DNA of 64,000 nucleotides from Patescibacteria group bacterium (GTDB taxonomy: Bacteria; Patescibacteriota; Minisyncoccia; Phycocordibacterales; UBA918), in contig JAZKFU010000009.1 in the NCBI GenBank assembly GCA_040386275.1, forward strand, positions 22,367-86,366, written 5' to 3'. Every line of letters starts with the position of its first letter. The stretch's first letter is position 1. The notes below the pieces were generated by a model. It made no database searches. It was not told the origin of the DNA and saw nothing but the letters and a program-made list of their open reading frames with translations. Below are positions 6,522-62,349 of this stretch, in pieces. The position numbers and the translations under genes were made by a program.

Positions 6522-6725
6522 CTAGGAAGCAACTGTCGGCACGTTCAGCTCATACCGACTGACCCCGTGCTCATCTTCCCAGAAGGCAAGGCGTGTTTCA
6601 AGGGGTTGAGTGCCTTGCCCTCGCTTTAGGTGGTAGTGATAGAGTTGTTTATCCGCCTCACACCAGATGCCAAAACTACCGTCGGTGAACACTTGAGTTA
6701 CCATACCTGACTTACTTTTATTCAT
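6522..6725 (-). CDS. hypothetical 67-aa protein, GC-rich
   Basis: Strong GGAGG RBS 8 nt upstream; shares a terminator with mscL. Confidence 0.45.
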   Translation of the reverse strand: MNKSKSGMVTQVFTDGSFGIWCEADKQLYHYHLKRGQGTQPLETRLAFWEDEHGVSRYELNVPTVAS

Positions 6726-7101
6726 ACTACTTTCCTCCGGCTCTGTACTATCGTTACAGTATATAAGTTGCTCATGAGTGTCAATAAATGCATTAGATAT
6801 TTCTCCCGGTCTTCACAAATGCTAAAACAATTTTAGAGTATGAAAGACCTGATTAGTTATCCCCATTCTTGTGCACTGTACTCAGGTAGCGGTCCTTACT
6901 TTAAGCCATATCTCCGTGCCGTAGCCGTTTTTTACATTTACTGCAAAACCCCTTATTATAGGTGTATCACCGCGTCTCCACCGCGATGTGTGTCGGAGGA
7001 CAAGACACGCAGCGTTATGTTTTTAAAACATACCCTGAGCCCAGTCACATAAACTGGGCAGTCTTTACCTCACCTTGTAGTCGCGCACATTATTTATTAA
7101 A

Positions 7102-11396: not shown

Positions 11397-12182
11397 ATGA
11401 ATTCAATATTTAACTCAAAGTTAAATCAGCTGCTTATTACGTTGGTACTCGCTGGAGCAACAATCGCCTTAATTGCGTTTGCCTACAGTACCATCAAGCA
11501 GCAAAACCAATGGGGAGGGCCCATGACCATTAATGTGACCGGAAAAGGTGAAGTGATGGCAAAGCCAGATATAGCCCAGTTTTCGTTTTCCGTACGAGCA
11601 GACGGTGCTGACGCCACTGAAGCCCAAAAGAAATCAGCTGATGCTATTAATGCCGTCACCGCGTACCTAAAAGAAAACGCGATTGAAGACAAAGATATCA
11701 AAACTGAAGGCTACAACATGAACCCAAAGTATAAGTATGAGCAAAAGCCATGCCTCTACGGTTCAATTTGTCCTCCGGGTGAACAAATACCTGACGGGTT
11801 TGAAGTATTTCAAACGGTGACGGTAAAAGTTCGGGATATTCAAAAAGCTGGCACACTCTTAGGCGGCGTAGGGGATAAGGGAGCCACTGATATTTCCGGT
11901 CTTAATTTCACCATTGATGATGAGGATGCCCTTAAAGCTCAAGCGCGCGAAATGGCGATAGCCGACGCTCAAGCCAATGCGGAAAAGCTAGCCGGTAACC
12001 TCAATGTTCGGATCGTAAAAATGATGAGTTACTACGAAGATTCTCCAGCCATGCCAATGTACGGCTACGGTGGCACCATGATGGATGCACAAGCTAAAAA
12101 TGCACCAATGGCTGCCCCAGAAATTTCAGTGGGGGAGAATAAGACTGTAAGCAACGTCACCATCACCTACGAAGTTAAGTAA
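11397..12182 (+). CDS. SIMPL-domain (DUF541) protein, membrane-anchored
   Basis: N-terminal TM; INVTGKGEV..KPD.A.FSFSV and the overall DUF541 pattern. Confidence 0.7.
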   Translation: MNSIFNSKLNQLLITLVLAGATIALIAFAYSTIKQQNQWGGPMTINVTGKGEVMAKPDIAQFSFSVRADGADATEAQKKSADAINAVTAYLKENAIEDKDIKTEGYNMNPKYKYEQKPCLYGSICPPGEQIPDGFEVFQTVTVKVRDIQKAGTLLGGVGDKGATDISGLNFTIDDEDALKAQAREMAIADAQANAEKLAGNLNVRIVKMMSYYEDSPAMPMYGYGGTMMDAQAKNAPMAAPEISVGENKTVSNVTITYEVK

Positions 12183-12183
12183 G

Positions 12184-12262
12184 CAAACGAGCGTAGCGAC
12201 TATTGCGAACTTAGTTCCGAATTTGCCCCTTCCCAGGGCAAATTCCTGGAACATGTTATCGT
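12184..12262. repeat. intergenic repeat family A, copy 1 (conserved 10-bp-stem hairpin)
   Basis: aaacgagcgtagcgactattgcgaac..ccGAATTTGCCCcttcccaGGGCAAATTCctggaac..atcgttg; two further copies at 44231 and 49213. Confidence 0.8.
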
Positions 12263-12436
12263 TGAAATAAGGTCATTTTCCTTGTACTTCTTACAGAAGC
12301 TGTCTACTCATTGGCTATTTTGCTTCGTAAGCTCACAAAATAACTCAATGAGTCTTGCGAAAGTGTTTAGACACTTTCTCACCTTGTATCTACAGCAAAA
12401 TTAAACTTTTTTGACAAAAAACCACTTTAAAGAAAG

Positions 12437-12466
12437 CACCCAAGGCTTTGCCTGGGGTGTTTTCTT
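12437..12466 (+). terminator. intrinsic terminator
   Basis: cacccaagg cttt gcctggggtg ttttctt. Confidence 0.7.
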
Positions 12467-12510
12467 ATGTTTTCTACTTTTCTCTATTCAATATTCCATT
12501 TTCTAAGGCT

Positions 12511-12783: not shown

Positions 12784-13329
12784 ATGGCTAAACAACAATT
12801 CACCGGCGAACGACACTGGTACGCCATCCATACTTACTCTGGATACGAAAACGCCGTTGCGCGTAACCTGAAACAGCGTATTGAATCCCTCAACATGACG
12901 GAGAAAATTTTTAACGTGGTCGTGCCTTCAGAAAAGAAAATTCGCGTAAAAGGGGGAAAGCGAGTAACTGAAGAAGAGAACCTATTTCCGGGGTACGTGC
13001 TCGTTGAAATGGTAGTAGATGATGAGTCATGGTACGTTGTGCGAAACACACCGCGCGTAACGGGATTTGTGGGTAGTGGGACACAACCAGTACCGCTCTC
13101 AGAATCAGAATACAAAGCGCTCCTCAGTCAAATGAGTGATGACTCAGCTACACACAAGGTAGATCTTTCAGCGGGTGATCTCGTAATGATTACTGATGGT
13201 CCGTTTAAGGAGTTAGAAGGAAAGGTAAGTGACGTTGATGAAAAGACTGGAAAAGTGAAAGTATTAGTGGCGATGTTTGGGCGGGAGACTCCGGTCGAAC
13301 TCGACTTTCTCCAGATCAAAAAGGTATAA
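12784..13329 (+). CDS. nusG: transcription termination/antitermination factor NusG
   Basis: N-terminal WYAIHTYSGYENAV and C-terminal KOW (GDLVMITDGPFKELEGKV). Confidence 0.9.
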   Translation: MAKQQFTGERHWYAIHTYSGYENAVARNLKQRIESLNMTEKIFNVVVPSEKKIRVKGGKRVTEEENLFPGYVLVEMVVDDESWYVVRNTPRVTGFVGSGTQPVPLSESEYKALLSQMSDDSATHKVDLSAGDLVMITDGPFKELEGKVSDVDEKTGKVKVLVAMFGRETPVELDFLQIKKV

Positions 13330-13351
13330 ATCAAAACTCCTAAAATCGGCG

Positions 13352-13440
13352 ATTCGCGTTGTCGTTACGAAATTTTGTTCAGTCACCGTACAGTAGTACG
13401 GCTCCTTCTCAAAATTCCTAGACTCCTAGCGACTCATCCA
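13352..13440. repeat. intergenic repeat family B, copy 1 (ccgtac-loop-gtacgg hairpin element)
   Basis: gcgttg...tcaccgtac agta gtacggctc cttctcaaaattcc; further copies at 24815, 42762 and 43172. Confidence 0.75.
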
Positions 13441-13475
13441 ATTTAAGAAGTTTTAGGAAGTTGACTGAAATTAAG

Positions 13476-13509
13476 AAAACACCCCAGGCTACGCTTGGGG
13501 TGTTTTCTT
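13476..13509. terminator. bidirectional intrinsic terminator (nusG and the convergent small ORF)
   Basis: aaaacaccccaggc tacg cttggggtgttttctt. Confidence 0.75.
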
Positions 13510-13546
13510 AAATGAATATGACCCGCTGGATCATATCCATGTCGGG

Positions 13547-13845: not shown

Positions 13846-14091
13846 ATGACTCAAAAACAGAAATTAGTAGAAACTTTTCGGACCAATCCAGGCTCATTAA
13901 AGTTTAAACAGCTGGCAGCTGTACTTGAACATTATGGTTTTACCATGATTCAGGCTAAGGGCAGTCATGTAAAATTTAAACATCCAAAATTGTCTTCTGA
14001 TTTAATAATCCCAATTCATAACGGTGACTGCAAGGATTTTTATAAAAAAGAAGCATTAAAACGAGTTTCTGAAATCGAAAAAAATAAATAA
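13846..14091 (+). CDS. hicA: type II toxin HicA-family (YcfA-like mRNA interferase)
   Basis: 81 aa; LEHYGF...KGSHVKFKHP....IIPIHNG core typical of HicA. Confidence 0.7.
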   Translation: MTQKQKLVETFRTNPGSLKFKQLAAVLEHYGFTMIQAKGSHVKFKHPKLSSDLIIPIHNGDCKDFYKKEALKRVSEIEKNK

Positions 14092-14092
14092 T

Positions 14093-14407
14093 ATGGCTAC
14101 AACTTCAACTATCACCATTCAAAATAAAAAATATGAATATACTCTAAAACCTTCAAAGGAGAAGGGAGTTATTCGCTTTGTTTGCAAAGGAGCCAATATT
14201 GATCAAGACTTTCTTGCGGAAGATATTCCAACGTTAATTCTTGACTTGCCTAGACTCATTCTTGCTGAGCGAGCGTACCAGGACAATCAAACCGAAGTTG
14301 TTCGATTCCGTATCTCCTCAGAAGATAAGAAAAAAATTGAGAAAAAAGCGCTCGCTAGTGGTTTTGAGACCGTTTCTGATTATTTGCGTGCGCGAGCGCT
14401 AGCGTAG
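14093..14407 (+). CDS. hicB: cognate antitoxin (HicB-like) with a C-terminal ribbon-helix-helix
   Basis: Start 2 nt after the hicA stop; C-terminal RFRISSEDKKKIEKKALASGFETVSDYLRARAL resembles a CopG/RHH DNA-binding motif. Confidence 0.55.
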   Translation: MATTSTITIQNKKYEYTLKPSKEKGVIRFVCKGANIDQDFLAEDIPTLILDLPRLILAERAYQDNQTEVVRFRISSEDKKKIEKKALASGFETVSDYLRARALA

Positions 14408-14939: not shown

Positions 14940-14995
14940 ATTACATTAACCGACACTTTGAGATACTTTTGATTTTATGAAAAAAGTATCCAAAG

Positions 14996-15017
14996 GGTGT
15001 ACAGCTTCTGTAAGAAG
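14996..15017 (+). promoter_or_regulatory. conserved 22-nt motif ggtgtacAgcttctgtaagaag (copy 1, in the rplK 3' region)
   Basis: Near-identical copy at 58667-58688 downstream of rplL; both are preceded by ttgattt and contain a cttct-gta-agaag mini-hairpin. Confidence 0.5.
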
Positions 15018-23540: not shown

Positions 23541-24809
23541 ATGCAAAATTACGATTTCATTAAAGCGCAGGATCCAGAATTGTACGCGACGTTAATTGGA
23601 GAAGAAGCTCGAGAAGCCCGGGGTATAGAATTAATCCCTAGTGAGAACTATGTTTCGCGCGCTGTCTTGGAGGCTAATGGTTCAGTATTCACGAATAAAT
23701 ATTCCGAGGGGTATCCTGGGAAGCGATACTACGGTGGGCAACAGTACACCGACATGATGGAGAGTATCACGATTGAACGTGCAAAAAAGTTATTTAAAGC
23801 AAACTATGCAAACGTGCAGCCATTAGGAGGAGCGGCCGCTAACGTAGCGATGTACTTTGCGCTTATGGAACCAGGAGACACCGTATTAGGTATGGACCTG
23901 AGTCACGGTGGACACCTTACCCACGGTCACCCTACGACAGCAATTAACAAAGTCTTTAACTTTGTCCGCTACAAAATGAAGGACGTTGATACGGGAGAAA
24001 TTGATTATGAAGCATTGCGACAGACTGCACTTGAACATAAGCCAAAAATTATTTTGGCAGGATTTTCTGCGTATTGTCGCGAGCTTGATTACCAAAAATT
24101 TGTTGATATCGCGCGTGAAGTAGGAGCGTACGCGGTAGCCGACGTAGCGCATATTACCGGACTGATTGCCGGAGGGGTAGCCAAGAACCCGTTTGATTAT
24201 GGGTTTGATGTAATGACGATGACCACACATAAATCTCTTCGTGGTCCACGAGGAGGAATGATTGTCGTGCGCGAGAGTGAAGAGATTGCTAAAAAAATTA
24301 ACAAGGCAGTATTCCCCGGAATGCAGGGTGGGCCACACATGCATATTATTGCGGCCAAAGGAGTTGCCTTTGGTGAAGCACTAACTCCACAATTTAAAGT
24401 GTACGCAGCCCAAATTCTAAAAAATGCTAAAGCCATGGAAGCGGTCTTTAAAGCGCACAACGTACGATTGCTTTGTGGAGGAACTGATAATCACATGTTA
24501 CTGGCGGACGTGTTTGGCAGTCTTGGTATAACCGGTCAAGAAGCAGAAACTGTTTTGGATAAGGTTGGGATTACGCTTAACAAAAATATGATTGCTGATG
24601 AAACTCGTACTGCTATGGATCCTTCAGGAATTCGCTTCGGCACGCCAGCCATGACCACACGCGGCATGATGGAAGGGGAAGCCACCAAGCTCGCTGAAAT
24701 TATGATTACCACCATGAAAGCTAAAGATGATTTGGTGAAGATTAATGAGTTGCAAAATGAGGTGCAGGCTCTTTGCGAAGCGCATCCCGTCCCCGAAAAG
24801 TTCGTCTAA
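23541..24809 (+). CDS. glyA: serine hydroxymethyltransferase
   Basis: LIPSENYVS.AVLEA.GS..TNKYSEGYPGKRYYGG and the PLP-lysine region THKSLRGPRGG. Confidence 0.95.
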   Translation: MQNYDFIKAQDPELYATLIGEEAREARGIELIPSENYVSRAVLEANGSVFTNKYSEGYPGKRYYGGQQYTDMMESITIERAKKLFKANYANVQPLGGAAANVAMYFALMEPGDTVLGMDLSHGGHLTHGHPTTAINKVFNFVRYKMKDVDTGEIDYEALRQTALEHKPKIILAGFSAYCRELDYQKFVDIAREVGAYAVADVAHITGLIAGGVAKNPFDYGFDVMTMTTHKSLRGPRGGMIVVRESEEIAKKINKAVFPGMQGGPHMHIIAAKGVAFGEALTPQFKVYAAQILKNAKAMEAVFKAHNVRLLCGGTDNHMLLADVFGSLGITGQEAETVLDKVGITLNKNMIADETRTAMDPSGIRFGTPAMTTRGMMEGEATKLAEIMITTMKAKDDLVKINELQNEVQALCEAHPVPEKFV

Positions 24810-24814
24810 AAATA

Positions 24815-24908
24815 GCGCATTTCTGCGTTGCAGCTGCGGCAAAACTTTACTCACCGTACAAGAAGTACGGCTCGCAAACTTTTCCTTGTGCGCCTTGAAC
24901 TGCATCTA
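24815..24908. repeat. intergenic repeat family B, copy 2
   Basis: ctgcgttgcagctgcggcaaaactttactcaccgtac aagaa gtacggctcgcaaacttttccttgtgcgccttgaactgcatc. Confidence 0.75.
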
Positions 24909-25113
24909 TTTTAAAACGAACTTCCACCCCACAACGAGTCGTGAGAAGTGACATTGAGTCACTTCTCACCTTGAACTTCATCTCGTTTAATGAATTCTAG
25001 GTCCTGTGTGATTAATGACGCCTAGGACTGTATCTATTTTTGACTCACACTGAGTTTCTGGGCAATTCTTGGAGTTTTAAATTGCTTTTATATTGGATGA
25101 TTCGGCTATGAAT

Positions 25114-40417: not shown

Positions 40418-40626
40418 CTATTATTTAAATATTCACAAAAGTTTTCGAGATACTAAAAACCCTTAAATCAGTTTAGTAGCCAGGCTCGCTCAATTAATCT
40501 AAATTATCTCAAAAATGAGATGAACGCGCGACGCGCGAGGAAAATTTCCCGAGCCTTACTTTCTGTAAGGTGAGGGGAATTTTGCCGAAGCGCAACAAAG
40601 CGGGCGCTCATTTTTGTGGTAATTTA

Positions 40627-41598
40627 TTAGTCGAAGATGGATATTAGATACTCATCAATCTTCCGCTGCTCCCAGTCATAAAAACTGGCATCTGCTTTAT
40701 CTAAATCCTTTGCTAAATCTTCACCGACAAAACGCCAGTGCCACGGTTCAAACACGTAATAAGCATTACCTTTTGGGTAGGAGAGGGTGAAGCCGTACTT
40801 GGAAGCATTTTCCAACATCCAGGTATAGGCTGGAGTGCCTTCGAACCCATCCAATCCGCCACCCAGTCCTTCGGTCGTAAAATCGAGCGTGGTACCGAGT
40901 TGGTGTTCGGAGTAGCCCTGGTCGGCGGAGAACGTGTTGGCGCCACTGCCGTAGGTTTGGGTGTAGGCACCTTTAAGACTGGCTTGTTCGTTAAAGGAAC
41001 GGTACGCTGACACCACCCAAATTTTAATACCATCTGCTAACGCAGCTTCTATCATATCATTAAGATACGGTTCGACTTTGCCGTGAATTGATTTGGAAAT
41101 GGCTTCGTTATACAGATATTTCTTCTCAATCGGGACAATTTTTTCCGGGATGTAGTGTTCGTTTAAGAAATAGACTTTAGAGTATTTTTGCAGTAACTCT
41201 TTGTCGGTTTTAGAGAGTTTATCGAGCACACCAACGGTACCAGAAATTTTCTTAATCTGGTCTTCAAATTCATCGTTTTTATTCTTTTCTTTTCGATAAT
41301 CGTCCTCGATGTCATCTAGTTCTTCCGCGGTGAGGGACAGTCGGCTGGAGAGTTCGGCGATCGTACTGCTCGCTAATTCCCGTTCTTCAAGCAGACTTTG
41401 GGTGCTAGAAGCGTTTTCCAAGAGGAAATAGTTACGTTCCGCCAACAGCATGTCGATTTTCTTTGCTTGTGACCAGGTAGAGTACGATAAATACCCGGTA
41501 CCAATCAGTAAGACCACAATTGCCCCCAAATAGAGGTATTTTGGATGAATTTTCCGACGAACAATAACTCGTGACATAGTTGCTCTTAAGTATATCAC
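40627..41598 (-). CDS. VanY/M15-family D-alanyl-D-alanine (LD/DD) carboxypeptidase with N-terminal TM and coiled coil
   Basis: SEHQLGTTLDF and the SAYRS..EQ motifs. Confidence 0.7.
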   Translation of the reverse strand: MIYLRATMSRVIVRRKIHPKYLYLGAIVVLLIGTGYLSYSTWSQAKKIDMLLAERNYFLLENASSTQSLLEERELASSTIAELSSRLSLTAEELDDIEDDYRKEKNKNDEFEDQIKKISGTVGVLDKLSKTDKELLQKYSKVYFLNEHYIPEKIVPIEKKYLYNEAISKSIHGKVEPYLNDMIEAALADGIKIWVVSAYRSFNEQASLKGAYTQTYGSGANTFSADQGYSEHQLGTTLDFTTEGLGGGLDGFEGTPAYTWMLENASKYGFTLSYPKGNAYYVFEPWHWRFVGEDLAKDLDKADASFYDWEQRKIDEYLISIFD

Positions 41599-41716: not shown

Positions 41717-42244
41717 ATGTCAGAAACAACAATGCCAGCTATCGAGGCAGAAATTCGTACTGATGAGCAAGAAATTGCCTCATACGAACTCGCCTACCAC
41801 ATACTTCCAACGGTAGCTGAAGGGGAAGTGATGGCAGTGACTCAGTCACTCAAAGACCTTATTACTAAAGCCGGTGGTCAAATTTTTGACACCGAAGACG
41901 CAGAACGCTTCGAACTAGCCTACGAGATTGATAAATATCTTGAAGGTAAGTACCGAAAGTTCAACAGTGCATACTTTGGATGGACACGTTTCAAACTTGC
42001 TCCATTAGCGCTTAATCAACTCACTGAACACGTGGATGAACACAAGCAACTCCTACGATTCCTCCTCGTTCGATTAACGAAAGTAGAAGAAGCTAATCCG
42101 TTCCGTTTCCACGAAGCGTTAGTAGACACAAAAGTACGAAACATTGATCTTGATGCTGAAGTTGCTGCCGACACCGAAGTGGTAGATACTGAGGGTATCG
42201 TCGATGAAGTGGTTGAAGGTGGAGACGATGTGAAGATTGCGTAG
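41717..42244 (+). CDS. rpsF: 30S ribosomal protein S6 with acidic C-terminal extension
   Basis: YELAYHILP.....GG.I...E..ERFELAYEI pattern; sits in the conserved rpsF-ssb-rpsR context. Confidence 0.8.
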   Translation: MSETTMPAIEAEIRTDEQEIASYELAYHILPTVAEGEVMAVTQSLKDLITKAGGQIFDTEDAERFELAYEIDKYLEGKYRKFNSAYFGWTRFKLAPLALNQLTEHVDEHKQLLRFLLVRLTKVEEANPFRFHEALVDTKVRNIDLDAEVAADTEVVDTEGIVDEVVEGGDDVKIA

Positions 42245-42276: not shown

Positions 42277-42741
42277 ATGTACCTTAACAAAGCCATGATT
42301 TACGGAAATCTCACCCGAGACCCGGAAATGAAATCCCTTCCGAGCGGCATGCAAGTATGCTCGTTCTCAGTTGCTACCAACCGTTCATACAATGACCGTG
42401 ATGGTAAGCGCCAAGAAGCAGTTGAATACCACAATATTACTGCCTTTGGTAAACAAGCCGAAGTTATCTCTAAGTATTTAACAAAAGGTAGTGGTGTGTA
42501 CGTTGAAGGACGTTTACAAACCAACAGCTGGGAAAAAGACGGAGTCAAACAATATCGTACCGAAATTGTCGTCGATAAATTTGAATTTGGTCCGAAAGGT
42601 GGCGGCGCAGGAGGCAGTAGTACAAGTAACGCAGGAAACGCAGGCAGTAATGCCACTAGTACCGGGGGTAATAACAATAGTGCACCGGTGCTACCTGAGT
42701 ATCCAACGGAAGACATCAATCCCGAAGACATCCCTTTCTAA
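42277..42741 (+). CDS. ssb: single-stranded DNA-binding protein
   Basis: OB-fold N-terminus (MYLNKAMIYGNLTRDPE...), Gly/Asn-rich linker and the C-terminal DIPF. Confidence 0.9.
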   Translation: MYLNKAMIYGNLTRDPEMKSLPSGMQVCSFSVATNRSYNDRDGKRQEAVEYHNITAFGKQAEVISKYLTKGSGVYVEGRLQTNSWEKDGVKQYRTEIVVDKFEFGPKGGGAGGSSTSNAGNAGSNATSTGGNNNSAPVLPEYPTEDINPEDIPF

Positions 42742-42761
42742 CGAACGAATATACCCAATCT

Positions 42762-42855
42762 ACTGCGTTGCAATGACTGTTTGTTCGGTTACCGTACCGA
42801 CGTACGGCTCTCTCTCAAACAATCATCGCGCCTTGTATCTCGGGCATCTCGTTCA
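42762..42855. repeat. intergenic repeat family B, copy 3 (between ssb and rpsR)
   Basis: ctgcgttgcaatgactg...ttaccgtac cgac gtacggctctctctcaaac...cgcgccttgtatc. Confidence 0.7.
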
Positions 42856-42949
42856 TTAGAAAATAGTTTAGAAAGTGCATCTGCATCATCTTTAAACTTT
42901 AAAACACCTCGTAACGTAAATTTGAAAACTTATTAGTTAAAATACCAAC

Positions 42950-43153
42950 ATGGAACAACATAATCTTCACAAAAAGGCGGCTTTGGAGCATATTGATTAC
43001 AAAGACATCACTAGTCTCGCAAACAATATCAACCCACACGCACGTATGAACAGTCGACGTCGAACTGGCTTCTCAGCCAAGGCACAACGTGACTTTTCTC
43101 GAGCGATTAAGCGGGCGCGGTTTATGGCCCTAATGCCATACATCGCCCGCTAA
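42950..43153 (+). CDS. rpsR: 30S ribosomal protein S18
   Basis: IDYKD...L..........R...GFSAKAQR....AIKRAR..ALMPY. Confidence 0.9.
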   Translation: MEQHNLHKKAALEHIDYKDITSLANNINPHARMNSRRRTGFSAKAQRDFSRAIKRARFMALMPYIAR

Positions 43154-43171
43154 AGCTTCCATAGCAAGCCA

Positions 43172-43265
43172 TCTGCTGCGTTGGGACTGCGGTAAAATTT
43201 TACTCACCGTACAAAAGGTACGGCTCGCAAAATTTTCCTTGCCCACCTTGCATATGACTCACTCT
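43172..43265. repeat. intergenic repeat family B, copy 4
   Basis: ctgcgttgggactgcggtaaaattttactcaccgtac aaaag gtacggctcgcaaaattttccttgcccaccttgcat. Confidence 0.75.
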
Positions 43266-43330
43266 GAAAACTTTAGTAGAAATCTGCTTAACTAATTCAG
43301 TGGAAAAAGAAAAAACACCCGGTGGGGTGT

Positions 43331-43358
43331 TTTTTTTGAAATTGAGGTATATACTAAT
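43331..43358 (+). terminator. intrinsic terminator
   Basis: aaaaacaccc ggtg gggtgttttttttg. Confidence 0.75.
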
Positions 43359-43646: not shown

Positions 43647-44222
43647 CTACGCTTTCTCGATTCGTTCTGAGTAGTCGCCTGACTCGGTGTTAATTGAAAT
43701 CACGTCTCCTTCATTGATAAACATTGGTACCATGACGGTGGCGCCAGTTTCTACGGTTACTTGTTTAAGGGCACTACTTGAAGTGTTACCTTTAACCGCA
43801 GGCATGGCTTCGGTTACCTTAAGCTCTACTTTAATAGGAAACTTGATACCAATAATCTCTTCTTCAAATACTAACGCTTGTACGTCACTGCGTTCCTTAA
43901 GGAATTTACCGGGGTCTCCAATAAAGTCTTCGGTGAGGGCAAAGCGTTCTGCTGGCTTGCCAGCGTTATGGAACCAGTATTCACTTCCTTTGCGATAAAT
44001 GAATGTTACGTTTTTGTTTTCAAGATCAGCCTCGTCTGCTGTTTCGCTTACGTGGAAGGTTTGTTCGTACTGACGACCAGACTTCAAACCTTTAAGTTTA
44101 GTAATGTTTACCGGCTTACGTTGTTGCTTCCGAAACACGTGAGTAGCGAGCACTAAACAAGGCTCATCGTTAAAGATGATTACTTTCTTGAGGGTTATTT
44201 CGTTGTATGAGAGGACAGCCAT
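43647..44222 (-). CDS. efp: elongation factor P
   Basis: KOW-like N-terminus plus two OB domains; central ..EADLENKNVTFIYRKGSEYWFHN pattern. Confidence 0.85.
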   Translation of the reverse strand: MAVLSYNEITLKKVIIFNDEPCLVLATHVFRKQQRKPVNITKLKGLKSGRQYEQTFHVSETADEADLENKNVTFIYRKGSEYWFHNAGKPAERFALTEDFIGDPGKFLKERSDVQALVFEEEIIGIKFPIKVELKVTEAMPAVKGNTSSSALKQVTVETGATVMVPMFINEGDVISINTESGDYSERIEKA

Positions 44223-44230
44223 GAAGTGAG

Positions 44231-44320
44231 AAAACGAGCGTAGCGACTATTACGAACTTCCTTCCGAATTTGTCCCTTTCCTAGGACAAATTCCTGGAAT
44301 ATGTAATCGTTGCGTACTGC
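44231..44320. repeat. intergenic repeat family A, copy 2 (abuts the efp start codon)
   Basis: aaacgagcgtagcgactattacgaac..ccGAATTTGTCCctttcctaGGACAAATTCctggaat..atcgttg. Confidence 0.8.
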
Positions 44321-44425
44321 TCAATTAAAATGAATAATAGCGTCACATTTATACCAAAATTACCCATTAAAAGCAACGCGTGTACAGCAACCAAAGCGTT
44401 AGTTTGGTGGTATTATTAAAGAATT

Positions 44426-49196: not shown

Positions 49197-49212
49197 GTAG
49201 TGAAATGAAGAA

Positions 49213-49310
49213 ATGAGCGCCAGCGATTATTCTGAATTTCGTTCCGAGTTTGCCCCTTTCCCTAGGGCAAACTCCTTGAACTTGTAATCGTTGCTAGCGA
49301 CTCATTTTGT
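49213..49310. repeat. intergenic repeat family A, copy 3 (abuts the ftsK start codon)
   Basis: aaatgagcgccagcgattattctgaa..ccGAGTTTGCCCctttccctaGGGCAAACTCcttgaac..atcgttg. Confidence 0.8.
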
Positions 49311-58545: not shown

Positions 58546-58666
58546 TATGTAAAAATTTTTTAATGTAATTTTTGAACCGGAAGCGCGCATCAGACAAAAC
58601 AGTCTGGGTGAGAAGTGACTAAATGTCACTTTGCAAGACCTTTTGATAAATCTTTGATTTACAAAA

Positions 58667-58688
58667 GGTGTACCGCTTCTGTAAGAAG
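58667..58688 (+). promoter_or_regulatory. conserved 22-nt motif ggtgtacCgcttctgtaagaag (copy 2)
   Basis: 21/22 identity with 14996-15017; lies between the rplL terminator and a second terminator at 58813-58843. Confidence 0.5.
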
Positions 58689-58812
58689 ACTGTTTTGTCG
58701 CAAGCGCTGAGGTGGGGTCGAGAGCACTTGGCTGATTTGTGAGCTTGCGAGCAAATCTGCGTAGTGACTCGTGACAAGATTACCCTTAAATAATTTAAAA
58801 CGAAAGTATTTC

Positions 58813-58843
58813 AAAAAACACTCCCACCTGGGAGTGTTTTTTG
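58813..58843 (+). terminator. intrinsic terminator upstream of the surface-protein gene start
   Basis: aaaaaacactccc acct gggagtgttttttg. Confidence 0.75.
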
Positions 58844-58920
58844 TACTTTTAGACTCGTTTACCAGGATTTTGTCCCCAGAGTCTTCTTCGTCGGTATCTA
58901 TAAATGCTACTATTTTAGAT

Positions 58921-61900
58921 ATGACAGAAAAATTAACAGAAATAGTCGCTTTATTACAAATATTACTTTCGCTTGTGATGACGCAAGGTCAGACACTAGC
59001 TACCAATAATAATAACGGTGCTCTTTTAGGATCTACTTCAGTTGTGACTGCGACGACTACTGCGTGGACCCAAATTGCCAAAGAAGGTCAAAGGTTCACT
59101 GTTTCAGGCACACAAACGGTCCGGTATGGATATGGAACGTCATGGGTCCAAAAAACAGTGACTAATTCAGGTACTTGCTCTAATCGTTTTTTTGGAAAGG
59201 ATCCGATTGTAAATCAAGTAAAGGTGTGTCAGGTTTCTTCTACAGTTACCCCGTCAACTCCCACACCAGTAACTATCGCCACTCCGTTTAAGATTGGTGA
59301 CCGGGTGAGTATGACCGCAAACGTTAATGTTCGAACATCAGGTCTAATTTCAGCCACTACACTTATTGGTGTTAATCCACTTGGGAGTGTGGGAACGCTT
59401 ATTGCTGGTCCCACCCGATCTGCTGACGGCCTTGTTTGGTTTAACGTCAACTTCGACGCTGGCTTTGATGGGTGGGTTGGTTCAAATAACTACCGTTTAG
59501 TTACTACCTCGGTCACTCCGTTACCAACCCCAGCACCAACGCCAACCTTCACCACCACCGTCTCTGGTCTCACAGCTACTGCAGCTTTCACGTTAAGTAA
59601 TGGGTGTGAAGGGTACACCATCCTCTGGGGTGACGGTACTCAATCAGCTAAAGCAGCTTCACCATCGGGCAGTTCGTGTACCATGGCGATTGTAAATGTG
59701 TCCCAAGTCCATGCCTATGCTACCGCGGGAACCTATACGGTCACCGTTCAACGGTACAGTAGTGGTACGACTTTAAAAGATACCAGTACCCGAACGGTTA
59801 CTGTTGCTGGCTCAACTCCAGCCCCAACTCCATTGCCCGTAACTATCAACACTCCTTTTAAAATTAATGACCGGGTGAGTATGACCGCAAACGTTAACGT
59901 GCGCTCTACTGGGCTGGTATCTGCAACTACATTACTTGGAGTTAATCCTCTAGGAAGTATGGGAACCCTCGTGGCAGGTCCAACCCAATCTGCTGACGGT
60001 CTCATTTGGTTTAACGTGAATTTTGACACTGGCTTTGATGGTTGGGTGGGAGCAAATAACTACCGTTTAGTTACTACCGTTACTCCATTGCCGTCTCCAA
60101 CACCAACGCCAATTCCTGTACCAGCGCCAACACTTGTTGTGAACGCTAACCCTACGAGCGTTACTACTGGTAACACTGCTGTAATTTCTTGGTCAAGTAC
60201 TAACGCCACCGCGTGTACAGCGAGCGGCGCCTGGAGCGGTTCTCGAGCGGTGACTGGTTCATTCACGACGAGTGCTCTTAATACCACGGGCACCCAAACA
60301 TACTCCATGACCTGTACCGGTTCAGGCGGCAGTGTGACCCGTTCTGGTAGTGTGGCAGTAACCGCGGCGGCAACAGTAACTCCAACCCCAGCTCCAACTA
60401 CGCCAACAGTATTTGGTCCGCGAACCCCAAGTCCACTTTCGGTACGACAAATCCACAGTGGCCACAGCCTCACCGACGGCGGTACGTTCCAAGGTACCTA
60501 CCCGGGGCACTTCCGGAATATGATTAATAGTATCCAAGCCAATAGTGCCAATGTCGCTCAAAGTACCATTCCGGGTTCTCCGCTCCATTGGCGCTGGAAC
60601 AACGTACCGGGCTATGGTCAGCCTGATGCCCGCGGTGATATCGGTAACTATCAGTTACTTGTTATTACCGAAGGCGTGCCATTCATCTTCTCTGCCTCCA
60701 ACCCCGAGTGGACCCTTGAACACCGCACCTGGCTGCGCACCTGGGCCGAACACGCCTGGCGCAACGGTAATGGCGGCGCGGGTGCACCAACCATCTTATA
60801 CGCCACCTGGACCAACATCGATGATGCGGACGGACCGTTCCGCCAAAACCTCGATACCTACCAACCTATCTGGGAGGATATGGCTGACTACGCGTCTGCT
60901 AACCTACCTGCTCAAGCCAAGGTATACATTATTCCGGCGAACCTTTTAATGAAACGCTTCTACGATGACATTCAAGCCGGACGAGTACCGGGTATCAATA
61001 ACATTAGTGGTTTCTTCTCTGATGCCATTCACCCTAATGGCTTAGGAAGTTACGCGGTAGCGCTTCAACACCTTCTCGTGATTCACCACATTGACCCGCG
61101 CGGACTGCGGTCCACTGGTTTTGGCTTAAGTCCTGAACCTTCAGCGGCTCTGGCTAAGTACATTCAAGATACCGTGTGGGATGTGACGACGAAGTATCCA
61201 CGTAGTGGGGTGACGGCGGGGAATACAACCACCTCAACGCAAACCCCAAGTACAGTTCCAACCCCAACCCTGTCTCTGAGTGCTAACCCAACCAGTCTTA
61301 CCGCTGGTAACGCCGCTACACTGAACTGGTCAAGTACCAACGCCACCGCATGTTCTGCTGGTGGTGCATGGAGTGGATCGCGGGCGGTAAACGGTTCATT
61401 TACTACGGGTGCACTTAGTACTGTGGGTACACAAATTTTCAACCTTACGTGTACGGGAAGTGGAGGAAGTGTGAGTCGTTCTGCAAGTGTGGGTGTGACA
61501 GCGTCTACAGTAACCTCTGCGCCTACCGTTACCTCGTGTACGGTACCAACCCTGACCTTTAATCCGGCTGACTTCGACCGCGTGATTGATGGCACAGAAA
61601 TCACCAGTACATTGACCCTGGATGGATCTGCTTGGAATAATACGCTGATTAGAAATTGTCGCGTGCGTAACACCGCTGGGGATGGAATTCTTCTCCGTAA
61701 TGTGAGCAACGTGGTAATTACCGGTTGTACGTTTGAAAATATGGGCGGAAATGCGGCGGTCCGAGGGAGTTCAAGTGGCGGGACGTCAAACGTGACGCTT
61801 TATAGAAATACTGTGAATGGAACTGCTTCAAACGGTTTCCATTTTGCAGAACGAATTGCTTCGGGAGTGGATCACGTAAACTTGCGTATTATTGGCAATA

Positions 61901-62349
61901 CACTCAGTAATACGGGTCGAGCTTCGTCAGATGGTTCAACCCACGCTTTGTATATCCAAGCGCATGATTCTCTGATTACCCATAACACTATTAATGGTTC
62001 GCGCAATGGAAACGGTATCTCCGTTCGCAGTTCAGGGGAAGTGTCGTGTAATACCGTATCAGGCACTTCATCAAATGGTAAGCCAGGTATTCGCTATTAC
62101 TCAGACCATAATACTGGTTTGACCAATACCCTTATTATCAATAGAAATACCGTAAGCGGAGCAACTGAAGGAATAAATATCTATCAACCAGTCGTCAGGT
62201 ATGATGGCCAGACTGGATTAGATCACGTGGTGAAAAACTTTGTGATTACCAACAACGATGTCCGGAATAACACCAATGGTATTGGTATTGCCAGTCAGTA
62301 CAATCAATCACCGTTTACCGTGACGCAGTCAGGAAATATGACTAATTAA
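58921..62349 (+). CDS. large secreted multidomain surface protein (two SH3-like repeats, two Ig/PKD-like repeats, a central hydrolase-like domain, and a C-terminal right-handed parallel beta-helix)
   Basis: Start set at MTEKLTEIVALLQILLSLV after the terminator; internal direct DNA repeats 59281-59507/59851-60077 and 60143-60366/61280-61505; beta-helix repeats NCRVRNTAGDGILLRNVSNVVITGC... Confidence 0.55.
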   Translation: MTEKLTEIVALLQILLSLVMTQGQTLATNNNNGALLGSTSVVTATTTAWTQIAKEGQRFTVSGTQTVRYGYGTSWVQKTVTNSGTCSNRFFGKDPIVNQVKVCQVSSTVTPSTPTPVTIATPFKIGDRVSMTANVNVRTSGLISATTLIGVNPLGSVGTLIAGPTRSADGLVWFNVNFDAGFDGWVGSNNYRLVTTSVTPLPTPAPTPTFTTTVSGLTATAAFTLSNGCEGYTILWGDGTQSAKAASPSGSSCTMAIVNVSQVHAYATAGTYTVTVQRYSSGTTLKDTSTRTVTVAGSTPAPTPLPVTINTPFKINDRVSMTANVNVRSTGLVSATTLLGVNPLGSMGTLVAGPTQSADGLIWFNVNFDTGFDGWVGANNYRLVTTVTPLPSPTPTPIPVPAPTLVVNANPTSVTTGNTAVISWSSTNATACTASGAWSGSRAVTGSFTTSALNTTGTQTYSMTCTGSGGSVTRSGSVAVTAAATVTPTPAPTTPTVFGPRTPSPLSVRQIHSGHSLTDGGTFQGTYPGHFRNMINSIQANSANVAQSTIPGSPLHWRWNNVPGYGQPDARGDIGNYQLLVITEGVPFIFSASNPEWTLEHRTWLRTWAEHAWRNGNGGAGAPTILYATWTNIDDADGPFRQNLDTYQPIWEDMADYASANLPAQAKVYIIPANLLMKRFYDDIQAGRVPGINNISGFFSDAIHPNGLGSYAVALQHLLVIHHIDPRGLRSTGFGLSPEPSAALAKYIQDTVWDVTTKYPRSGVTAGNTTTSTQTPSTVPTPTLSLSANPTSLTAGNAATLNWSSTNATACSAGGAWSGSRAVNGSFTTGALSTVGTQIFNLTCTGSGGSVSRSASVGVTASTVTSAPTVTSCTVPTLTFNPADFDRVIDGTEITSTLTLDGSAWNNTLIRNCRVRNTAGDGILLRNVSNVVITGCTFENMGGNAAVRGSSSGGTSNVTLYRNTVNGTASNGFHFAERIASGVDHVNLRIIGNTLSNTGRASSDGSTHALYIQAHDSLITHNTINGSRNGNGISVRSSGEVSCNTVSGTSSNGKPGIRYYSDHNTGLTNTLIINRNTVSGATEGINIYQPVVRYDGQTGLDHVVKNFVITNNDVRNNTNGIGIASQYNQSPFTVTQSGNMTN

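Follow-up and report, generated by a model that had tools for sequence, protein, structure and literature searches.

The element and its copies in the window

The window, by which we mean the entire 64,000-nucleotide (nt) stretch of Patescibacterial DNA analyzed here, contains the genes nusG, glyA (SHMT), ssb and rpsR (S18), each followed by one copy of a repeated element designated family B. The identities of glyA, ssb, rpsR and the ribosomal protein S6 gene upstream of ssb were assigned by Pfam, while those of nusG and of the SecE gene preceding it were taken from the Pfam families listed for a matching contig. A preliminary description of the sequence had placed four copies just after the stop codons of these four genes, and all of them are present: the pattern CCGTAC-N4/5-GTACGGCTC has exactly four matches in the window (13386, 24854, 42792 and 43207, all on the plus strand), against none in 100 shuffled sequences. 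The blocks of sequence listed there as shared are confirmed by the sequences themselves and by an alignment of the four copies.

Each copy is a long imperfect hairpin of 145–161 nt with its flanks, rather than a 6-bp stem embedded in flanking sequence. The element is thus longer than the roughly 90 bp originally proposed, comprising a conserved unit of about 100 nt within a hairpin that reaches back across the stop codon into the final codons of the gene. Its parts are named here on the best-folding strand, which for copies 1–4 is the minus strand of the window. The conserved unit begins with a basal helix (AGAUGC/GCAGAU) holding a tandem G.A, next to which lies an internal loop (UAGGC/AACAAC). 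Two variable, covarying stems separate this loop from an apical stem of 7 bp (GCCGUAC/GUACGGU), which is closed by a G.U pair and flanked by GA...GA. The apical loop, correctly described before as variable, is 4–5 nt long and free of sequence conservation. The outer stem, P1, is specific to each locus: the last codons and the stop codon pair with a sequence farther downstream, so that the gene end is repeated in inverted form in the distal arm. P1 is rich in A and U and terminates in AUUUU on either strand.

Copy 1 (13312–13467, minus strand) follows nusG, whose stop codon occupies 13327–13329. Its conserved unit spans 13344–13443, its apical stem-loop 13386–13404 and its tight outer stem about 13334–13455, and its folding energy is −50.7 kcal/mol on the minus strand versus −31.7 kcal/mol on the plus strand. 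Copy 2 (24781–24941, minus strand) lies after glyA (stop codon 24807–24809), with its conserved unit at 24810–24911 and apical stem-loop at 24854–24873; here the final glyA codons and the TAA pair with an inverted copy at about 24912–24941, and the folding energies are −62.9 (minus) versus −37.3 kcal/mol. Copy 3 (42720–42873, minus strand; conserved unit 42751–42847, apical stem-loop 42792–42810) is situated between ssb, with its stop codon at 42739–42741, and rpsR, and folds with −65.3 (minus) versus −38.8 kcal/mol. It sits inside the rpsF-ssb-rpsR operon, as first noted, and elsewhere copies occur within rpsL-rpsG-fusA. Copy 4 (43135–43292, minus strand) comes after rpsR (stop codon 43151–43153), has its conserved unit at 43166–43261 and its apical stem-loop at 43207–43226, and reaches −65.7 (minus) versus −33.2 kcal/mol.

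A new and diverged fifth copy was recovered by profile search (nhmmer E-value 5.5e-10) on the plus strand at 40490–40634, where it abuts the stop codon (40627–40629) of a minus-strand VanY-like gene (40627–41598). Its conserved unit covers 40513–40603 around the core GAGCCTTAC-tttct-GTAAGGTGA, and its stem CCTTAC/GTAAGG represents a compensatory G>T/C>A change relative to copies 1–4; the folding energies are −64.4 versus −43.2 kcal/mol. Because this copy flips its orientation along with its minus-strand gene, the rule is that the element follows a stop codon irrespective of the strand of the gene, and that its orientation with respect to the gene is always the same. The earlier restriction to plus-strand stops, accurate for the four copies then known, was accordingly incomplete. 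The five copies correspond to a density of about one per 13 kb.

Several further features of the window were recorded. Between nusG and rplK, HicA-toxin-like and NikA-like genes (13846–14407, from the Pfam families listed for the matching contig) break the usual nusG-rplK-rplA order. The S6 gene (41717–42244) encodes 175 amino acids, of which the Pfam S6 domain covers residues 23–119 only, leaving extensions at both ends. Within an open reading frame (ORF) of 1192 amino acids at 58771–62349, long stretches of DNA are repeated, one of 254 nt with 80% identity and another of 269 nt with 70%.

Covariation and distribution in Patescibacteria

Covariation was measured on 108 aligned copies. Compensatory double changes were found in 19 of 26 predicted pairs; a standard pair occupied 89.3% of cells, against 66.2% in shuffles, and 670 cells were changed on both sides, against 222. 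The covariation score of 0.555 compares with 0.158 in shuffles, none of 500 of which reached it, and it fell to 0.124 or less when partners were slid by 1–3 columns. The lack of variation in the seven apical pairs of this set reflects only their inclusion in the search pattern. In copies recovered by profile, the apical stem does carry compensatory changes (GTCGTAC/GTACGAT, CCGTAT/ATACGG and GATGTAC/GTACATT) with the flanking GA...GA unchanged, and CGGTAG/CTACCG is a further variant among relatives. The invariance first ascribed to the 6-bp stem therefore holds among the four original copies, whereas the stem covaries beyond them. The family B structure is real, conserved and under selection.

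The distribution of the family was surveyed with a 19-base version of the core in 596 Gb of sequence comprising one genome per species. At least 110 loci in about 65 genome assemblies matched, nearly all from Patescibacteria, with about nine matches expected by chance. Taxa among the matches listed include Saccharibacteria, Kaiserbacteria, Paceibacterota, Nomurabacteria, Zambryskibacteria, Gracilibacteria, Uhrbacteria and the unclassified "Patescibacteria group", and a 28-nt core is kept across classes. Three or four of the matches listed bear non-Patescibacterial labels; these lie on short contigs from metagenome bins, and all motifs of the family are present in at least one (L027). Several matches share one assembly, showing that family B is multi-copy within genomes, and in the JAZKIJ01 assembly window copies 1 and 4 have identical or almost identical counterparts, which assigns the window to that species or to a close relative. 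Among 2.9 million viral contigs, none matched the core pattern. Family B belongs to a class of extended palindromes, anchored at stop codons, that is spread across the Patescibacteria, and its core motif offers a practical marker for Patescibacterial contigs.

The comparison with Rfam that had been suggested at the outset matched no family to the element: across the whole window, Rfam 15 at gathering thresholds returned two tRNAs only, and around copy 2, at E-values up to 10, it gave only a chance miRNA match on a neighboring hairpin. The full-text literature searched on hairpins, repeats, terminators and MITEs of Patescibacteria, Saccharibacteria and Parcubacteria, or by motif text, yielded no description of family B; a group II intron paper found in this search used TM7x only as an outgroup. 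A large part of bacterial diversity belongs to the Patescibacteria, whose genomes measure about 1 Mb and are considered nearly devoid of repeats and regulatory RNA. Family B adjoins genes for ribosomal proteins, translation factors and replication, and would imply a conserved partner and a process without prior description.

Gene-end context and the folding strand

The position of the element relative to genes is highly regular. Of 98 intergenic copies with a called neighbor 3′ of the folding strand, 82 have that neighbor in convergent orientation, and the stop codon of this abutting gene lies a median of 45 nt from the core, that is, at the foot of the hairpin. The ends of 99 non-redundant flanking ORFs, each 50 codons or longer, fall between 30 nt before and 15 nt after the gene-proximal end extrapolated from the profile. 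Copies are intergenic and fixed in orientation, as opposed to lying inside coding regions in random orientation, a pattern that the preliminary description had associated with a simple mobile repeat. The genes abutted recurrently across assemblies are rpsL, rpsG, fusA, ssb, nusG, ftsA, ribonucleotide reductase and an xerC-like gene, which places the element between cistrons of the str and rpsF-ssb-rpsR operons. The adjoining stop codons are TAA in 48 cases, TAG in 28 and TGA in two, against a background of 293, 142 and 80 (p = 0.006); the use of TAA or TAG in 76 of 78 stops hints weakly at a junction that contains TA.

About a third of the listed copies, judged by eye, have a classical hairpin with A and T tracts on their gene-distal side. 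The order is then stop codon, element and terminator, as in window copies 1 and 4; classical terminators behind two of the copies had already been noted. Downstream of copy 1 and outside the element, a G+C hairpin with an A tract and a T tract (13473–13510, identified by eye) has the shape of a bidirectional terminator and was left unflagged by a simple terminator scan; downstream of copy 4, the terminator hairpin AAAAAACACCCC-ACCG-GGGTGTTTTTT (43310–43335) is common to a convergent efp-like gene. As a separate observation, the terminator-like hairpins at 12430–12467 and 13473–13510 share 87% identity, loop region included, at a distance of 1043 bp.

It follows from this order that the element is transcribed in the sense of the gene and is not itself the terminator, in agreement with the earlier view that it is not simply a terminator; it is necessarily co-transcribed with the upstream gene as a 3′ untranslated region (UTR) or intercistronic RNA. 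A non-canonical intrinsic terminator of the upstream gene, which a hairpin right behind the stop codon and the A/U-rich outer stem ending in AUUUU on both strands might suggest, is a most improbable explanation. The element stands between co-transcribed essential genes, canonical terminators come after it, and it has no G+C-rich stem beside a free U tract. A terminator scan of the three stretches holding copies 1–4 gave no match spanning a copy, the single match inside one being a weak hairpin of 7 pairs within the 5′ arm of copy 4 (43174–43194).

Co-transcription lends weight to a role in the mRNA, as anticipated in the preliminary description. The hairpin would act in the 3′ UTR or between cistrons as a signal resembling REP and ERIC elements or as "punctuation". 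Such a hairpin might block 3′–5′ exonucleases, or be processed or bound by a protein so as to determine how stable the segments of an operon are relative to one another; a coupling to translation termination is also conceivable, since ribosomes at the stop codon must melt P1. Transcription in the sense direction is certain, and the element is positioned between stop codon and terminator or between cistrons, with its orientation and distance tied to a stop codon that lies within P1. It shows a preference for the highly expressed rpsL, rpsG, fusA, ssb and nusG, is subject to purifying selection in place, and retains a mean folding energy of −42.6 kcal/mol in the sense RNA. This explanation fits the context best, but it contradicts the statistics of strand described below, and many orthologous sites are without the element. 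We regard it as a serious rival that is possible yet somewhat doubtful; if true, family B would be the main 3′ UTR or operon-punctuation signal of the whole superphylum.

The strand asymmetry is pronounced. Over 116 copies, the mean folding energy with RNA parameters is −56.8 kcal/mol for the antisense strand versus −42.6 kcal/mol for the gene-sense strand, and with DNA parameters −28.2 versus −23.5 kcal/mol; both parameter sets give the antisense strand the lower energy in 113 of the 116. Window copies 1–5 range from −50.7 to −65.7 kcal/mol on the antisense strand versus −31.7 to −43.2 kcal/mol on the sense strand, and the folding z-scores of the window copies from −3.4 to −5.8 versus −0.9 to −2.3. 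A strand-neutral mismatch test was also applied, in which only Watson–Crick pairs were allowed in folding each copy, and single mismatches with a pair on either side were tallied. On the antisense strand, mismatches of the G.U type outnumbered those of the A.C type by 115:8 in P1, by 25:1 in P3/P4 and by 44:7 in the locus-specific flank outside the profile, and G.A exceeded C.U by 31:6 in P1. The two conserved tandem G.A motifs likewise exist only on the antisense strand. Mismatches and tandem motifs together favor the strand opposite to the mRNA 6- to 25-fold, and in the mRNA the conserved motifs turn into U.C/C.U and A.C internal loops. The structure-dependent function first proposed thus stands as far as the structure is concerned, whereas the RNA roles attached to it presume an mRNA-sense fold that the strand tests oppose.

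Mutational bias was considered as a cause of the asymmetry and ruled out by reasoning. The deamination biases of transcription and replication are opposite in sign to the observed asymmetry and far weaker, and the asymmetry is therefore taken to reflect selection acting on the bottom strand. Another possible cause is selection for a sense strand poor in G and rich in pyrimidines, which would mimic the mismatch statistics; the gene-sense strand does show such a composition (C 27.4%, G 18.0%).

We read the fold as being under selection on the complementary (template or bottom) strand, despite its co-transcription with the upstream gene. Beyond the observed extent, breadth, covariation, context and strand bias of the family, we infer an acting molecule and its partner. 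Our preferred explanation, held tentatively and with less than even confidence, is that family B is a structured repeat like REP, ERIC and attC whose working form would be the bottom-strand hairpin, bound by a conserved Patescibacterial factor. The hairpin would most likely act as single-stranded DNA (ssDNA) recognized by a conserved protein and, less likely, as a rare antisense transcript, while the weakened mRNA-sense hairpin would allow the element to be tolerated within essential operons. Points that weigh against a bottom-strand function are that the sense RNA is certainly made and still folds strongly, and that the template strand of co-directionally replicated, highly expressed genes is not known to become exposed as ssDNA. 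An antisense transcript of the element's own is disfavored by the region upstream of the hairpin. No positionally conserved promoter was detected in the 100 nt upstream of 115 copies on the folding strand, local scans gave one match at chance level only, and a bidirectional terminator is often present there instead; an own promoter for an antisense small RNA was rejected on these grounds.

A polar insulator against antisense transcription would use the same strand differently. The strong hairpin would form only in RNA read toward the 3′ end of the gene, where it would stop or mark antisense transcripts at the gene boundary, while sense polymerases would pass a weaker hairpin. Fixed orientation, position at and overlap with the gene end, strand asymmetry and tolerance inside operons would all be accounted for. 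We nevertheless consider an insulator quite unlikely: in the relevant direction the hairpin has no U tract after it, a bidirectional terminator often already lies upstream of it, and the phylum-wide conservation of the core sequence would be left unexplained. Convergent gene pairs, moreover, show no enrichment, making up 26 of 75 pairs with the element and 240 of 677 without it (p = 1).

Extending the preferred bottom-strand explanation to the whole group gives a more speculative proposal, which we consider possible though on balance improbable. The elements may constitute a genome-wide, superphylum-conserved Patescibacterial system of stop-codon-anchored, template-strand hairpins, and hence a new class of strand-specific cis elements with a putative conserved reader protein. 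Possible roles would include an attC- or REP-like DNA transaction on core genes, or a device policing antisense transcription or the traffic between replication and transcription. If the bottom strand is indeed the working form, family B would be a second case, besides attC, of gene-end hairpins that work as folded single strands, here on essential genes. This explanation and the mRNA alternative are both testable in the few cultivated, naturally transformable Saccharibacteria.

Relation to known repeats, turnover and neighboring elements

Family B behaves like a structured extragenic palindrome of the REP/BIME/REPIN, ERIC or attC kind, yet it departs from the defining features of each. REP/BIME elements and REPINs, which in proteobacteria are associated with RAYTs (Y1 transposases), are likewise multi-copy, imperfect extragenic palindromes that are co-transcribed and located mostly just behind gene ends or between cistrons; their strand-specific hairpin recognition and their copy turnover provide further parallels. 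REPs differ in being about 35 nt long (REPINs, with two REPs, about 100 nt), genus-specific, marked by a 5′ GTAG and present in both orientations. Family B is a single hairpin of 100–160 nt with a conserved center, variable ends, one orientation and a superphylum-wide core, and its unit of about 100 nt occurs as single copies rather than as the alternating clusters of 35–40-nt palindromes typical of REP/BIME. ERIC/IRU, a 127-bp enterobacterial element, resembles family B in being a long imperfect hairpin of similar size whose intergenic sites, some of them within operons, are transcribed. Unlike family B, ERIC is found in either orientation, and only in Enterobacteriaceae and Vibrio; we know of no anchoring of ERIC on stop codons, and the two share no sequence similarity.

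Integron attC sites are hairpins of 57–141 nt placed directly after ORF stop codons in arrays of genes and hairpins, with one orientation and an active bottom strand; their stem sequence varies while internal or extrahelical bases are conserved. Family B has the bottom-strand fold, the position directly after an ORF and the single orientation in common with them. The R″/R′ boxes of attC (RYYYAAC ... GTTRRRY) are absent: the base of family B consists of AGAUGC/GCAGAU with the tandem G.A, followed by the unpaired UAGGC/AACAAC, and the order of motifs misfits on both strands. Family B also differs in the conservation of its central part and in having core genes in conserved synteny as neighbors. 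The conserved synteny of the str and rpsF operons argues against attC-like cassette shuffling at those sites.

The motif GAGCCGUA...UACGGU, with its G.U beside AGC, may resemble the lower helix of group II intron domain V, a likeness that a text search of the literature did not confirm. Domain V, a hairpin of 34 nt that precedes domain VI, is capped by a GNRA loop and contains a bulge of 2 nt; family B has a 7-bp stem with a free loop of 4–5 nt, and lacks the bulge, the upper helix, the GNRA loop and the other intron domains. Around copy 2, Rfam RF00029 gave no match at E-values up to 10.

Occupancy of orthologous sites by family B varies. The element is present at 8 of 13 rpsG sites, three of the other five holding a displaced or diverged copy (sequences read), at 7 of 10 rpsL sites and at 2 of 5 rpsR sites; among eight fusA sites it occurs at one, the others having a plain terminator at the stop codon. 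After nusG, contigs in which the encoded protein is identical in spite of many synonymous differences have a different copy, an extra hairpin and the relic of an additional copy. Insertions of other element families occur between the stop codon and family B, and chimeras of family B with such families exist. At locus L017 (2520–3244), rpsL lies between two inverted family B copies that share an identical 85-nt unit, while their P1 stems differ and are each self-complementary.

These features would be expected of a purely selfish, non-autonomous mobile palindrome of the MITE or REPIN type without a host role, in which the structure would be needed for transposition and the placement would reflect tolerated insertions. 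The multiplicity of copies, the variation in presence or absence between orthologous sites, the elements stacked between stop codon and family B (once with an 18-nt gene-end duplication), the chimeras and the inverted twins around rpsL all fit this explanation, which we nonetheless judge unlikely. MITEs have conserved termini with terminal inverted repeats and target-site duplications. Family B shows the reverse arrangement, with an outer stem that differs at each locus and a conserved center, and no direct repeat was seen flanking the family B copies read. The same strand bias extends into the locus-specific flank, and viral contigs hold no copies. Furthermore, the variant located after rpsG maintains about 80% or more nucleotide identity (estimated by eye), with compensatory changes in P1, across assemblies whose S7 proteins are only 80–90% identical, which points to constraint at the locus beyond selfish spread. 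We infer that copies have been gained, lost and replaced over time and that some are kept at their sites by purifying selection.

Individual loci provided additional observations. The orientation rule has a rare exception at L017, where the rpsL 5′ UTR contains one of the two copies in its strongly folding orientation. The ORFs between this inverted pair and beside it were inspected for a RAYT-like gene and proved to be rpsL and rpsG. Downstream of rpsG in L054, an insert of about 67 nt carries an 18-nt direct duplication of the rpsG end (gcacac TTCGCCTGG TAG), and an older family B copy is displaced downstream; the duplication is possibly a footprint of how such elements insert. An apparent cassette replacement at the ssb locus of L041 is better explained by divergence or recombination of the whole 3′ region.

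A neighboring family of about 100 nt, family A, occurs in the window at 12177–12278, 44224–44326 and 49204–49307, always in plus orientation, and also in L044, L072, L109 and L004. It is characterized by the motif GAGCG-N2-3-AGCGA and an apical hairpin GAATTTGCCC...GGGCAAATTC, and begins at a gene boundary, with a stop codon at 12180 and minus-strand start codons beside it at 44222 and 49196. Family A is found in Kaiserbacteria and Saccharibacteria as well, sometimes fused to the 5′ half of family B or located between the rpsG stop codon and family B. It shows no folding asymmetry between strands of the kind seen in family B and has a different architecture, and the idea that it is a flipped family B was unsupported.

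Shorter hairpins of the form GGTGAGAAGTGAC-loop-GTCACTTCTCAC were noted in the window at about 24930–24975 and about 12340–12400, in L109 at about 6710–6750 and in the upstream flank of L071. They seem to share the basal framework of family B (AAGTTCAAGGTG ... CACGAC), and a "mini" form consisting of the framework only is present in L071. The shared framework and the mini form suggest that the basal motif may be the common functional part, with exchangeable apical modules. After rpsR in L022 and after rpsG in L082, the outer framework of family B (aatCTGCTTTGTC ... CGCGCATCTcggg) is combined with another apical module, CTCCCTGGAC-acaa-GTCCCAGTCGG.

The motif CAAA(G/A)GGTGTAC(A/C)GCTTCTGTAAGAAG lies at 14991–15017 and 58662–58688 of the window and recurs in other Patescibacterial assemblies. 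It follows the fusA terminator in L103, L050 and L035, is fused to family B in L111 and L041, and takes the place of the 5′ basal motif in some family B copies. Finally, a small conserved palindrome, TAGTCTATA-TTCGC-TATAGAT, is located between a family B copy and the rpsG start in L016, L033, L112, L082, L063, L017 and L004, and could represent an S7 translational operator or a promoter.
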